Source of the DNA: Patescibacteria group bacterium
Lineage (GTDB): Bacteria > Patescibacteriota > Microgenomatia > UBA1400 > PJMF01
Direction of reading: 5' to 3'
Assembly (NCBI GenBank): GCA_049322655.1
Contig: JBMORP010000006.1
Span: 13,863-77,862, forward strand
Length of the DNA: 64,000 nt
Shown: one piece after another, positions 42,328 through 50,213 of the stretch
Layout of the letters: each line of letters starts with the position of its first letter
Numbering within the stretch: the stretch's first letter is position 1
Translations under genes and position numbers: made by a program
Notes under the pieces: model-generated
The model's input: the letters and a program-made list of their open reading frames with translations, nothing else
What the model was told of the DNA's origin: nothing
The model's database searches: none

Positions 42328-43233
42328 ATGTTGGAATCACAAGAACCAGTTGACCAAGCTTCGATTGTCTTAGAAAAAGAAGTAAAAGAAAACCCAGCCC
42401 TTCCTCCTGATGATGAATTGCTCAAGACTGTTTTACTTGGTTTAGCAGAGAGAATGCATAAGATTGGTTTGGTTGAAGATTTAAACTACTTAATTGAAGC
42501 CTTGATTGAAGCGGAAACTACCTATCTTCACCATTCAGCTGATTCTGGAGAGTCTTTTTATGATGTTTTTTATAAAAGTTTTTTTGGCAAAGTAAAAGGA
42601 AAAACTACTGATCAGAAGATAATTAACTTGTTAAGACTTTCCTTAGAGGACGCTTTGGAAATTTTTAATCAATTTAGAGGTAAAAACAAAGATTTTTTAA
42701 CTCAATTACCCAATAGACAAGCTCTTGAGGGAGATTATCAAGATTTTATTCAAAGAAGAAGATCTGAAGACAATAACCAAGAATTTTCTTTAATAGTAGT
42801 TGATATTGACGATTTTAAGAAAGTAAATGATGAACATGGTCATTTGGCTGGTGATATGGTCCTGAAGTTTGTTGCTGATTCTTTACAAAAATTATGTCGA
42901 AGAACTGATGGTGTTTACCGATATGGTGGTGAAGAGTTTGTGATTATTGCTCATGGTAATGAGGAAGAAATAGAAAAATTAATGGTTAGAATTTTGGAAT
43001 TTTTTAGAACAACAGAGATAGACCTTGAAGAATTAAGTCATGGTCAGGGTAAAAGATTTAAAAATTTAAAATTAAGAAAAACAGTCAGTTTGGGTGCTAT
43101 TTCTAGTAAGAGAGTTAGTAACTTAAATTTTGCCAATCACTTCGATTTAGCAGATGTTGCTCTTTATTCAGCTAAAGAAGGTGGTCGCAATCAATATATC
43201 CAAAATTTAGTAGGGGCAATCTTTAATAGTTAA
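42328..43233 (+). CDS. GGDEF-domain diguanylate cyclase with unknown N-terminal sensor region
   Basis: RYGGEEFVIIAHG (GGEEF active site), DDFKKVNDEHGHLAGD. Confidence 0.75.
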   Translation: MLESQEPVDQASIVLEKEVKENPALPPDDELLKTVLLGLAERMHKIGLVEDLNYLIEALIEAETTYLHHSADSGESFYDVFYKSFFGKVKGKTTDQKIINLLRLSLEDALEIFNQFRGKNKDFLTQLPNRQALEGDYQDFIQRRRSEDNNQEFSLIVVDIDDFKKVNDEHGHLAGDMVLKFVADSLQKLCRRTDGVYRYGGEEFVIIAHGNEEEIEKLMVRILEFFRTTEIDLEELSHGQGKRFKNLKLRKTVSLGAISSKRVSNLNFANHFDLADVALYSAKEGGRNQYIQNLVGAIFNS

Positions 43234-43440: not shown

Positions 43441-44154
43441 ATGGCTATAAACTACTACCCCCTCATTAATAAAATAATTTCCACTTTGGGCATCAAAGAT
43501 CGTTTACTTCAAGAAATCCCTGAAGATCATTTTTTTGCTCGACCGTTTATTACTATTGCTCGAGAACCAGGCAGTGGTGGTTTACCAATTGCCAAAGAGC
43601 TAGGAAAAAGGTTAGGCTTTGAAGTTCATGATGAAATGATTATTGATAAGGTTGCTGAATCAACCCAAAAGCGTCGAGCAATTATTCGTAAAATCGATGA
43701 AAAAAGTAGAACTTATTTGGAAGATTTAATTCATTCTGCGTTAAATCCCAATTATGTTGATGAGAACACCTACATTAAAGAGTTGAGCAAAGTGATTATG
43801 TTATTAGCTCATGAGGGCAATAACATAATTGTTGGTAGAGGAGCTAATTTTGTTACGCCTTTTTCTAAGGGTTTACACGTTAATATTGTGGCTCCTTACA
43901 AATTAAGAGTATTAAGAGCGATGAAGCATGAAGATTACACTGAAGAAAAAGCCAAACGAGTAATTGCCCACTACGAAAAAGAGCGTCGTGATTTTGTGAA
44001 GAAATATTTTCGCCAGGATTTAAACAGTCGTAATGCTTATGACTTAACGCTCAATACAACCCACTACACGATTGAGGAAGCTGCCAAAGTGATTGAAGTT
44101 GCCTTCAGAAGAAAATTCCCAGCTTGGCAAAGAATTAAATCTTCGCTGTTTTAA
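43441..44154 (+). CDS. Cytidylate kinase-like family protein (P-loop NTPase fold, Cytidylate_kin2-like)
   Basis: ITIAREPGSGGLPIAKELGKRLGFEVHD N-terminal P-loop-like segment typical of this family. Confidence 0.55.
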   Translation: MAINYYPLINKIISTLGIKDRLLQEIPEDHFFARPFITIAREPGSGGLPIAKELGKRLGFEVHDEMIIDKVAESTQKRRAIIRKIDEKSRTYLEDLIHSALNPNYVDENTYIKELSKVIMLLAHEGNNIIVGRGANFVTPFSKGLHVNIVAPYKLRVLRAMKHEDYTEEKAKRVIAHYEKERRDFVKKYFRQDLNSRNAYDLTLNTTHYTIEEAAKVIEVAFRRKFPAWQRIKSSLF

Positions 44155-44179: not shown

Positions 44180-44263
44180 GCCAGAGTGCTGGAATTGGTA
44201 GACAGGCTAGTATCAGGAACTAGTGCTCTTTCGAGTGTGAGGGTTCAAGTCCCTCCTCTGGCA
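44180..44263 (+). tRNA. tRNA-Leu (anticodon CAG), type II with long variable arm
   Basis: Acceptor GCCAGAG/CTCTGGC, anticodon stem CTAGT/ACTAG, loop ATCAGGA, 15-nt variable arm, T-stem GAGGG/CCCTC; 84 nt. Confidence 0.85.
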
Positions 44264-44361
44264 CTAGCACATTTAAATATAAAAACTCGGTTTTTCACTT
44301 TGACCAAGTTGTTATATAATGTCAGTCTTGTGAGTGATCACGTCCTTTAAAACTAAACAAT

Positions 44362-44435
44362 GCGAGAATAGCTCAGTTGGCTAGAGCGTCTCCTTGCCAA
44401 GGAGAAGGTCGCGGGTTCGAGTCCCGTTTCTCGCT
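44362..44435 (+). tRNA. tRNA-Gly (anticodon GCC)
   Basis: Acceptor GCGAGAA/TTCTCGC, anticodon stem TCTCC/GGAGA, loop TTGCCAA. Confidence 0.9.
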
Positions 44436-44452
44436 CAGCGTGTGCAAAATAA

Positions 44453-44537
44453 GCCCAGGTGGCGGAACTGGTAGACGCGCAGTCTTGAGGTGGCTGTGGA
44501 GCAATCCGTGGAGGTTCAAGTCCTCTCCTGGGCACCA
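44453..44537 (+). tRNA. tRNA-Leu (anticodon GAG), type II; 3' CCA encoded
   Basis: Acceptor GCCCAGG/CCTGGGC, anticodon loop TTGAGGT, 13-nt variable arm, terminal ACCA. Confidence 0.85.
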
Positions 44538-44546
44538 CCATCCTTT

Positions 44547-44620
44547 GGACTCGTAGCTCAGTTGGTTAGAGCGTTCGGTTTACATCCGAAAGGTCAGAGG
44601 TTCGAGCCCTCTCGGGTCCA
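44547..44620 (+). tRNA. tRNA-Val (anticodon TAC)
   Basis: Acceptor GGACTCG/CGGGTCC, anticodon stem TTCGG/CCGAA, loop TTTACAT. Confidence 0.9.
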
Positions 44621-44638
44621 CTTCTTTTGTGCAAACAC

Positions 44639-44711
44639 GCCAAGCTAGCCAAGTTGGTCACGGCACATGTCTGAAAAACATGGGATTGAGGTTCGATTCC
44701 TCAGCTTGGCA
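44639..44711 (+). tRNA. tRNA-Phe (anticodon GAA)
   Basis: Acceptor GCCAAGC/GCTTGGC, anticodon stem CATGT/ACATG, loop CTGAAAA, 4-nt variable region. Confidence 0.85.
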
Positions 44712-44943
44712 CTAAAACCCTTTACTCGTTTGTAGTATGGGGTTTTTTTATGGCTTTTAATTATCTAATTGCTTGCTTGGAACTCTACCTATTTTTTACC
44801 AACTAAAGAGGCAAATATTTCTCTAATAAAATCAATCACAAACTTGAAAGTATAGGCACCAATCCTGACTACATAAGTCATGGTGGCTTCCAAACCTTGG
44901 GCAAAAATCTTATTACGTTGTAAGCGACTTGATTCTGACATAA

Positions 44944-45972: not shown

Positions 45973-46014
45973 AGTAAAATGTAGTATAGAATATCAGCCT
46001 AGGAGTGGGAAGAG

Positions 46015-46566
46015 TTAAAGATTTTTAATTAAAGTTCTTAGAAATTCTGATTTAGAGGTTTTGTTGTTATCTGCTAATTTTTTAAGTTTTTCATCTATTT
46101 TTTCTGAAATTAAGAAGTTAAATCTTTTTAGTTTTTCTATTTTAGTGCTATTAATTAATTTGGGCAGTTCTTTTTTTAATTCTTCTGTTTTTTTATAAGG
46201 GAAAAAGGTAAACTTTCGAAAGTTTTCTAAAAAAACCGAGATATTAGGAGTAGCATCTGACCTAGATACGGCAATGACTGGTTTATTTAAAGTTAAAGCC
46301 TCATGAATTAAATAGCCAACACTAATACTTTCATGAGTTGCTTCAGAAAGGACCAGGTCTGTTTTTCTAATTTTTTTAATAATATTTTTATGAAATTTAA
46401 TATTTTTTTCTAGAGACTGAGAAAGAGATTCTGGGCTTTCTTTTAAGATATGTTCGTAAAATACTTCATGACCCAGATCTTTTAGTAGTCCAATAATAGA
46501 TAGATAAAAGAATTTTTGTTTGGCTTTACCGTTAATTGATGCGACCAAAATTATCTTCACTGCCAA
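46015..46566 (-). CDS. Fusion protein: N-terminal nucleoside 2-deoxyribosyltransferase/Rcl(DNPH1)-like fold plus C-terminal ribbon-helix-helix (CopG/Arc/MetJ-like) DNA-binding domain
   Basis: LVLSEATHESISVGYLIHEALTLNKPVIAV aligns with the Rcl/NDT core (VVAEVTQPSLGVGYELGRAVALGKPIL). C-terminal KLKRFNFLISEKIDEKLKKLADNNKTSKSEFLRTLIKNL has the RHH beta-strand plus two-helix pattern. Overlaps the upstream helicase-nuclease gene by 10 nt. Confidence 0.55.
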   Translation of the reverse strand: MAVKIILVASINGKAKQKFFYLSIIGLLKDLGHEVFYEHILKESPESLSQSLEKNIKFHKNIIKKIRKTDLVLSEATHESISVGYLIHEALTLNKPVIAVSRSDATPNISVFLENFRKFTFFPYKKTEELKKELPKLINSTKIEKLKRFNFLISEKIDEKLKKLADNNKTSKSEFLRTLIKNL

Positions 46567-49658: not shown

Positions 49659-49703
49659 CAGTGGTCATTATAGCTGATGGGAAAGTTGGGAACAGGTGAA
49701 AAA

Positions 49704-50213
49704 CTAGGCTTTTTTATTGCGAGTTTTTTTATCAGGAAAATACCAAGCTTGGTCTTTTTGGGCTTGTTGAGTATTTCTAATGGCCACAGCACTCATTGCT
49801 CGGTCAAAGATAGTTACCCAATAGGGTTGTCGTTGGTTAAGTTTAATGTTTCTGGTTTTAATTGCCTCAGGAATATTAGCTGTTTCAACGGAAGTATCAG
49901 TGTAAATAAGTTTTTGAGCATTACGGCAAATGGTTAAACCATTCTCAGCAAAATCAGGATTAATATTGAATTTTTTGGCATACTTTGGGGGAATAATTTG
50001 ATGAATAATTATTTTTCCTCCACAGTTATGTTCGCCAGGAAATTGACAAGAATGTTGATCTCGTTCTTTGATCGCTGTTTTTTGTTTTTCAGAATATGCA
50101 CCCAAACTAACCAGAGTAGCAATAGCTAATAAACCCAAAGGACCAATGAGTTTTCCCCAGTCAAATCTTTCTACCAAGTTTTCTGGATTTTTGGCCATAG
50201 CGATATTATACAA
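49704..50213 (-). CDS. Membrane-anchored HNH-endonuclease-like protein (partly degenerate zinc/His motif)
   Basis: TM helix LIGPLGLLAIATLVSLGAY, then RDQHSCQFPGEHNCGGK...IHQIIP...ENGLTICRNAQK, which follows the HNH pattern (RDxxxCxxCG...DHIIP...ENLxxxCRxCNxxK) but with the second Cys pair and terminal His/Asn substituted. Overlaps the dus stop by 8 nt. Confidence 0.45.
   Translation of the reverse strand: MYNIAMAKNPENLVERFDWGKLIGPLGLLAIATLVSLGAYSEKQKTAIKERDQHSCQFPGEHNCGGKIIIHQIIPPKYAKKFNINPDFAENGLTICRNAQKLIYTDTSVETANIPEAIKTRNIKLNQRQPYWVTIFDRAMSAVAIRNTQQAQKDQAWYFPDKKTRNKKA

Follow-up and report, generated by a model that had tools for sequence, protein, structure and literature searches.

Within a window of 64,000 nucleotides (the whole stretch of DNA that was analysed), one gene encodes a protein in which an N-terminal domain of the DNPH1/Rcl type is joined to a C-terminal ribbon-helix-helix (RHH) domain. 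Proteins of this build form a large, undescribed family of ultra-small Microgenomates bacteria, with members mostly in Microgenomates/Patescibacteria. The focal DNPH1-like domain has the fold of DNPH1 and lacks its catalytic residues, and judging from these residues we treat it as a pseudo-enzyme. The explanation that we put first, at roughly an even chance, is that the protein regulates genes as an RHH dimer and uses its pseudo-enzyme domain to sense a nucleoside monophosphate-like ligand. The features of the locus are collected in Table 1.

Table 1. Features of the focal gene and its surroundings, in window coordinates
Feature	Position	Strand	Basis or remark
GGDEF diguanylate-cyclase-domain protein	42328..43233	plus	
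Cytidylate_kin2-family protein	43441..44154	plus	
Five tRNA genes (Leu-CAG, Gly-GCC, Leu-GAG, Val-TAC, Phe-GAA)	44180..44712	plus	
Conserved block upstream of the transporter gene	45973..46014	minus	
Promoter-like element TTCCCA-17-TATACT of the AI-2E-family transporter gene	45983..46011	minus	Pattern scan
DNPH1-like + RHH gene	46015..46566	minus	ORF list; 183 aa counted from TTG 46566; stop 46015-46017
C-terminal ribbon-helix-helix domain, aa 146-183	46018..46131	minus	Pfam RHH_1, family profile, AF2
DNPH1/Rcl-like domain (nucleoside 2-deoxyribosyltransferase superfamily), aa 4-140	46147..46557	minus	
Degenerate active-site motif S80-I-S-V-G-Y-L86-I-H-E89	46300..46329	minus	Alignments; residue roles from PMC10483697
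UvrD-type helicase + PD-(D/E)XK nuclease, 1033 aa	46557..49658	minus	Pfam UvrD-helicase, UvrD_C, PDDEXK_1
Conserved -10 box TATAAT, then GAC	49667..49672	minus	Upstream of the helicase ATG
169-aa protein between Dus and the helicase	49704..50213	minus	No Pfam match

The N-terminal domain

An earlier note on this DNA had assigned the N-terminal part of the protein to the nucleoside 2-deoxyribosyltransferase (NDT)/Rcl fold, and this assignment holds. The best PDB sequence matches found by phmmer are rat Rcl (2klh, E=2.5e-7, residues 6-113) and then human DNPH1, together over query residues 6-115, and SEATHESISVGYLIHEALTLNKPVIAV of the focal protein is aligned to AEVTQPSLGVGYELGRAVALGKPIL of rat Rcl, just as the note had claimed for the segment that it quoted. 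A profile of 60 family members matches human DNPH1 in hhalign with a probability of 99.4% (E=3.6e-21). When the AlphaFold2 (AF2) model of the focal protein (pLDDT 81.9) was compared with the PDB by Foldseek, the top 37 matches were all DNPH1/Rcl, with TM up to 0.82, followed by NDT and BcmB. Pfam Nuc_deoxyrib_tr (PF05014) covers aa 15-104 of the focal protein at 18.0 bits, under its gathering cut-off of 28.8, and the same cut-off is passed by the relatives P0026, P0035, P0038 and P0040. The domain is thereby a homologue of DNPH1/Rcl with the Rossmann-like fold of the NDT superfamily. It is not an NDT by its residues: NDT has an Asp at the 5'-OH position where DNPH1 has a Ser (the Asp92-to-Ser rule), and the focal protein has Ser there, with Leu in place of the Glu nucleophile.

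The active site

In human DNPH1 the catalytic residues are Tyr24, Asp80 and Glu104; Glu104 is the essential nucleophile, Tyr24 pairs with it, and Asp80 is the proposed general acid (PMC10483697). The nucleophile (human Glu104, rat Glu93) is indispensable for catalysis in both species, the active site is built from both subunits, and the 5'-phosphate is held by Ser98, by Ser128' of the partner subunit and by backbone NH groups (PMC10483697). We mapped these residues onto the focal protein by two independent alignments (phmmer and hhalign). Tyr24, Arg30, Asp80 and Glu104 fall on Ile6, Asn12, Ile62 and Leu86, respectively, and all four are lost, the nucleophile and both of its catalytic companions among them. 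Ser98 is kept as Ser80, and Gly102-Tyr103 as Gly84-Tyr85; Ser128' falls on Ser110 in phmmer or on Pro107 in hhalign, and neither placement is reliable. The 5'-phosphate site, with its serine and glycine-rich loops, is represented by Ser80, Gly13, Gly84 and Ser10. Of the "hallmark core" that had been read into this region, the fold and the phosphate-loop motif therefore stand, whereas the three catalytic residues are absent.

Conservation around the pocket is strong among near relatives. The stretch SVGYLIHEAL is unchanged in all 13 close homologues, so that Leu86 and His88-Glu89 are invariant there, and H78-E79-S80 is invariant or near-invariant within the clade of the focal protein. Across the whole family, position 62 is hydrophobic throughout, and Ser80 is present in 124/150 members.

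The ribbon-helix-helix tail

The tail was also correctly recognised from the letters as an RHH domain. Pfam RHH_1 matches aa 149-182 at 22.1 bits, above its curated cut-off of 20.5, and the cut-offs of RHH_3 or RHH_1 are passed in relatives as well. A profile of 28 family C-termini matches the CopG-family regulator 7by2 (E=3.5e-3) and CopG itself (1b01/2cpg, E=5e-3), and it reaches NikR at E=0.07. AF2 places helices at 155-167 and 172-182, with an extended stretch before the first.

The RHH strand is predicted as K147-R-F-N-F-L-I153. In the AF2 monomer, segment 146-154 is extended and of low confidence, with pLDDT <50 at residues 146-150; an RHH strand finds its partner only in the dimer, and such a result is to be expected of a monomer model. 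The C-terminal profile alignment puts Arg148 and Asn150 opposite Arg4 and Thr6 of CopG, two strand residues with which CopG reads DNA. Both are well kept among the 150 representatives: position 148 is R/K in 148/150 and position 150 is N/T in 141/150.

Gene start, operon, and promoters

The third codon of the open reading frame is GTG (46560-46558), and it overlaps the TGA of the preceding helicase gene as GTGA. The majority of homologues start at the position of this GTG, with M/V-K-I/V. From the overlap and these N-termini, GTG 46560 is probably the true start, which would give a product of 181 aa, and translational coupling to the upstream helicase gene is likely. A word-index search gave 12 close homologues at 58-92% identity, all of ~181 aa, one of them labelled Candidatus Pacebacteria.

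Gene order was compared in the window, in L001, L004, L006, L088 and L089, and on the P0002 contig (the upstream sequence of L090 is too short for this). It runs from Dus through a small hypothetical gene, the UvrD/PD-(D/E)XK helicase-nuclease gene and the focal gene to an AI-2E-family transporter gene. The pairing of helicase and focal gene is kept in every orthologous locus with an identifiable upstream gene. Their 4-nt overlap is found in the window, L006, L088, L089 and the P0002 contig, and they are separated by 1 nt in L004 and by 11 nt in L001. As the helicase stop codon overlaps the focal start, a two-gene operon is probable.

The promoters point the same way. The -10 box of the helicase gene is conserved in the six orthologous loci compared, as TATAATGAC in five and as TATAATGAG in L001, and is likely the promoter of the helicase/DNPH1-RHH pair. 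It lies 8 nt before the helicase ATG, which suggests a leaderless or near-leaderless mRNA. Downstream, the transporter gene is preceded by a separate, non-palindromic block of CTCTTCCCAC, ~17 nt and TATACT that is conserved in 5/6 aligned orthologous loci. The block may serve as an unusual -35 region or as the site of a regulator, and we regard the promoter-like element as a candidate regulated target. Since the helicase gene has its own -10 box and the transporter gene its own promoter-like block, we place the focal gene second in an operon of two genes.

Several observations concern the neighbouring genes in their own right. The helicase-nuclease is an AddA-like single chain with the nuclease at its C-terminus, and no AddB partner was seen in the vicinity. 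Its synteny with Dus extends from the focal clade to several other loci. PADLOC gives it strong scores with the GajB/DRT helicase models, which we attribute to the shared UvrD core. Most relatives have the 169-aa protein encoded between Dus and the helicase, at 58-61% identity; it is missing in L004 and L089, and it has a Cys/His-rich stretch (CQFPGEHNCGG...IIHQ). On the other side, the tRNA cluster lies between the cytidylate-kinase-like gene and the transporter operon, and the GGDEF and Cytidylate_kin2 genes are syntenic in the relatives L001 and L004. Genes of c-di-GMP signalling in so reduced a genome are possibly worth attention.

Searches for an operator

The earlier note presupposed palindromic DNA upstream of the gene. 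Owing to the overlap with the helicase gene, no intergenic DNA precedes the focal gene. Nor was a convincing repeat found: inverted and direct repeats were sought at the focal gene and the gene junction, at the helicase promoter and upstream of Dus, and gave short AT-rich matches only, which we judged insignificant. A scan for promoter and terminator patterns gave counts at or below the shuffled expectation and was thus uninformative.

We also compared k-mers in 96 regions upstream of family genes or their preceding genes with those in 403 other intergenic regions. Only the extended -10 box (TGATATAAT) was enriched in the 96 regions, and no other motif was common to them; TGATATAA occurs in 11/96 of the family-related regions versus 8/403 of the others (p ~1.5e-4). 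Two family genes have a palindrome, TTGAT(N)ATCAA, upstream of them; across all loci it is not enriched near family genes, and we dropped it as a candidate. No operator was thus found, and DNA binding, the ligand and the targets are inferred only, as are dimerisation and the regulon.

In passing, -10 boxes, often of the extended form, stand only ~7-12 nt before start codons in the window (49659-49672), in L022, L039, L059 and L084, and in others. This spacing implies leaderless or near-leaderless mRNAs.

A large family with two residue classes

An exhaustive HMM search, with cluster representatives at 50% identity as targets, gave 1213 representatives at E<=1e-3 and 327 at E<=1e-10. Among the 150 representatives listed, nearly all are 170-216 aa long (~190 aa) and aligned end to end, with both domains. 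The RHH-strand peptide D[VTI]RFNFF[IV][SP] was found in at least 195 species-level genomes; the informative titles among them name Microgenomates lineages (Shapiro-, Collier-, Woese-, Beckwith- and Chisholmbacteria), and many further titles are uninformative or apparently misassigned. The fusion, described at the outset as unusual, is by these counts common. An assembly or annotation artefact was ruled out as its origin; the architecture is common to hundreds of full-length homologues. The accompanying remark that no described family has this architecture agrees with what we found: no Pfam, NCBIfam or PADLOC model spans the whole protein, and the literature searched for the DNPH1-like/RHH domain pair gave no description of the family. 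In their source records the members are annotated as "hypothetical" or "predicted DNA-binding protein."

The family falls into two classes at the position of the nucleophile. Position 86 is Glu in 68 of the 150 representatives and another residue in 82 (Leu in 48). Among 131 ORFs from the fetched loci, Tyr6 and Glu86 occur together in 63, and where residue 86 is Leu, residue 6 is mostly Phe, Val, Thr, Leu or Ile; loss of one catalytic residue thus goes with loss of the other. About half of the listed members have the Tyr/Glu pair and, by this token, may be real enzymes.

The non-Glu class retains Ser80 in 72/82, Ser10 in 69/82 and Gly84 in 82/82, and neither here nor at Asp70 and Glu75 does it fall behind the Glu class. 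The two differ little in overall column entropy (2.55 vs 2.42 bits, non-Glu vs Glu), and we conclude from this conservation that selection still acts on the DNPH1-like domain of the non-Glu class. A rough NJ tree, with at least seven state changes, gathers the non-Glu forms into a few large clades. On the evidence of this tree they are old, long-lived pseudo-enzyme lineages rather than cases of sporadic decay, a history that fits retained ligand binding, although a purely structural role is conceivable.

Neighbourhoods in other genomes

Two to four family genes are present in 32 of 83 non-redundant loci, and some of these loci, such as L029, L064 and L014, are tandem arrays in which members of both residue classes, Glu and non-Glu, are mixed. 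Arrays of 2-4 paralogues in other Microgenomates genomes include L029:5069-7388, L064:526-2858, L014:6001-8535, L063:1991-3734 and L018:2927-6573, with Tyr/Glu (catalytic-looking) and Leu/Val (dead) forms side by side. The RHH strand differs between array copies (RFNFFISP, RFTFFVTP, RFTMLL..), which suggests that each paralogue may have a distinct DNA target.

For 125 family genes we tallied the gene immediately upstream. It is a SAM methyltransferase in 27/125 (from at least six unrelated clusters), another family member in 24/125 and a radical-SAM gene in 24/125, and then a PfkB kinase (6/125), a CMP/dCMP deaminase (4/125), RecR (4/125), the helicase-nuclease (3/125), a TK-like kinase (2/125) or a P-loop kinase (2/125). 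NUDIX genes are also found near family genes. The islets that hold the family genes are flanked by housekeeping anchors: YbaB-RecR ... CysRS, Dus-helicase ... RmlC-M29-M24, S9 hydrolase ... Mur ligase, and ... PilX-PilM. A link of the family to enzymes that handle SAM and nucleosides or nucleotides is suggestive, weakened as it is by the shared ancestry of the loci, and such neighbours are absent in the focal protein's own clade. For the radical-SAM, methyltransferase and PfkB neighbours, every NCBIfam match was far below its cut-off, so that none of them could be given a specific function.

Some contigs labelled Bathyarchaeia, Methanoperedens, Methylococcaceae or Pseudomonadales carry neighbourhoods of the Microgenomates type (RecR-radical SAM-family gene-CysRS, and others). 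Examples are L012, L041, L067 and many loci titled "uncultured Pseudomonadales," and the labels suggest mis-binning or mislabelling in public records.

A proposed mechanism and its alternatives

We propose that the focal protein would act as a one-component transcription regulator. The DNPH1-like domain would hold two subunits together, as the fold does in DNPH1 and NDT enzymes, and this pairing would unite two C-terminal RHH halves into a single DNA-reading beta-ribbon. With Tyr, Asp and Glu gone, and with the 5'-phosphate-binding serine and the glycine-rich loops retained, the pseudo-enzyme domain would most likely bind a nucleoside 5'-monophosphate-like ligand in the pocket at the dimer interface and leave it uncleaved. 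Occupancy by the ligand would alter operator binding, and the likely targets would be the promoter of the protein's own helicase operon, neighbouring promoters, or both. Against this proposal count the operator and shared upstream motif that were sought in vain, the low-confidence RHH strand of the monomer model, the unreliable placement of Ser128' and the change of Arg30 to Asn12. The suggestion of a sensor rather than an enzyme, made when only the letters had been read, fits the focal copy, given which residues it has lost and that the phosphate-binding Ser is kept.

The same residues may be read otherwise. If the DNPH1-like domain were a mere scaffold for dimerisation or oligomerisation, the protein would be an RHH regulator independent of any ligand. 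This we consider unlikely, although it would suit the loss of all three catalytic residues and of Arg30, and it would also suit residues 88-89 and other pocket-side positions, which differ widely between the non-Glu subfamilies. A scaffold hardly calls for Ser80, Ser10 and Gly84 at 84-100% in the non-Glu class, equal to or above the Glu class, and the invariance of SVGYLIHEAL and H78-E79-S80 in the focal clade exceeds scaffold needs; conservation of the pocket could nevertheless reflect structure or dimerisation instead of ligand binding. The loss of nucleophile, Tyr and Asp to aliphatic residues weighs against a bifunctional, PutA-like enzyme-repressor that would bind DNA and hydrolyse a (modified) nucleotide through other residues, such as His88/Glu89. 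That pair lies one helical turn past the lost Glu and is invariant in the 13 close homologues, and about half of the wider family retains the Tyr/Glu pair and may be active. However, His88/Glu89 is not conserved in other non-Glu subfamilies, and the Glu is essential in rat and human DNPH1 (PMC10483697), so that we hold such a double function in the focal copy to be very improbable.

Two further explanations take the protein out of metabolite sensing. It might be an accessory subunit or DNA-targeting partner of the UvrD/PD-(D/E)XK helicase-nuclease, at work in DNA repair or processing and not in the control of transcription. The GTGA overlap, the conserved promoter that the pair has for itself and the persistence of the pairing in orthologous loci all agree with this, as does the position of family genes in other lineages, close to RecR/YbaB or, at a distance of 1-3 genes, downstream of that helicase. 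Yet direct adjacency is confined to the focal clade (3/125 family genes), the closest relatives outside it (L042, L051) do not adjoin the helicase, and most family genes have a -10 box of their own and follow unrelated enzyme genes. Proximity to RecR/YbaB may be mere position, because ybaB-recR is a widely conserved housekeeping pair. Taken together, we find a helicase partner distinctly unlikely.

Least probable is a component of anti-phage defence, or something antitoxin-like, in which an RHH antitoxin is fused to a TIR/NDT-like effector; the earlier note had entertained a defence regulator. RHH domains are frequent in antitoxins, NCBIfam gives weak matches of the focal protein to RelB-like antitoxin (E=0.12), and PADLOC finds weak ThsB TIR-like matches in 4/60 family members (best E=2.3e-4). 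Those are the only PADLOC matches among the 60 members, and none is meaningful; the focal protein itself has no match. There is no toxin-like neighbour or toxin partner, the flanks are housekeeping genes (the helicase-nuclease and the transporter), and the catalytic residues of an effector are absent. The defence idea thus finds no footing in this locus, and we return to the ligand-sensing regulator as our preferred reading.

Extended to the whole family, that reading becomes more tentative. A possible, though doubtful, extension is that this is a major lineage-specific regulator family of the Microgenomates (CPR), in which Tyr/Glu paralogues destroy their ligand and repress and Leu86 paralogues are pure sensors, coupling the nucleotide pool or SAM by-products to gene expression. 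If this were true, the Tyr/Glu paralogues would, like PutA, combine two tasks, the repression of genes and the destruction of a (modified) nucleotide or SAM-derived nucleoside. The expression of SAM-dependent, nucleotide-salvage and DNA-processing genes would then be tied to scavenged nucleotides or SAM by-products, in organisms unable to make their own nucleotides.

Comparison with known systems

DNPH1/Rcl and the CMP N-glycosidases MilB/BcmB have the same fold, with sequence homology over ~135 residues of the focal protein. The Ser at the 5'-phosphate position that separates DNPH1 from NDT is shared (Ser80 = Ser98), and G-x-G-Y is kept. Ile, Ile and Leu, however, replace Tyr24, Asp80 and the nucleophile Glu104, so the focal protein is not an enzyme of the DNPH1/MilB type. 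Its C-terminal RHH is absent from every characterised DNPH1, MilB or NDT.

On the side of the RHH domain, the best sequence matches for the C-terminal 45 aa are plasmid and antitoxin repressors of the CopG/Arc type, which likewise have Arg and Asn/Thr on alternate strand positions. Those proteins are of ~45-90 aa and stand alone or carry toxin-binding tails, whereas the focal RHH follows a globular domain of 140 aa, and its gene lies on the chromosome among housekeeping genes. The regulator proposed here would be of the same kind as NikR (RHH with an ACT-like ligand domain) and MetJ (RHH with S-adenosylmethionine as co-repressor), in which RHH binding is set by a small ligand. In NikR the RHH is N-terminal and the sensor ACT-like; in the focal protein the RHH is C-terminal and the putative sensor has an N-glycosidase/NDT fold.

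Enzyme folds of nucleotide and other metabolism have been reused elsewhere as the sensing half of a transcription factor. PutA joins an RHH domain to a proline catabolic enzyme, NrtR a Nudix fold to a winged HTH, and Bacillus subtilis PurR a PRT-fold pseudo-enzyme to a winged HTH. NrtR and PurR often have a catalytically inactive enzyme fold, a property that the focal protein shares. By analogy, a dual function like that of PutA is possible for the paralogues that keep Tyr and Glu. These systems use other enzyme folds and share no ancestry with the family, and NrtR and PurR differ in their DNA-binding domain as well. An enzyme-fold sensor fused to RHH is thus known as a general kind, and the DNPH1-like + RHH architecture is undescribed in the literature and models searched.

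CPR/Patescibacteria have tiny genomes and are thought to have few recognisable regulators and to rely on scavenged nucleotides. With an N-glycosidase fold joined to RHH, and with 2-4 tandem paralogues in many genomes, the family is a concrete and testable candidate for the sensing of nucleotide-related metabolites in these bacteria. It would add a new sensor domain to the few ligand-controlled RHH regulators (NikR, MetJ and PutA). Its catalytic-looking and dead versions, side by side, are a natural series for the transition from enzyme fold to sensor.

Two relatives depart from the usual build. P0022 (401 aa) has two DNPH1-like domains around a stretch that HTH_31 matches weakly (E=0.0038, under the cut-off), and P0107 (312 aa) has the Nuc_deoxyrib_tr domain twice in tandem. 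The DNPH1-like fold may, on these sequences, have been joined to DNA-binding modules more than once.
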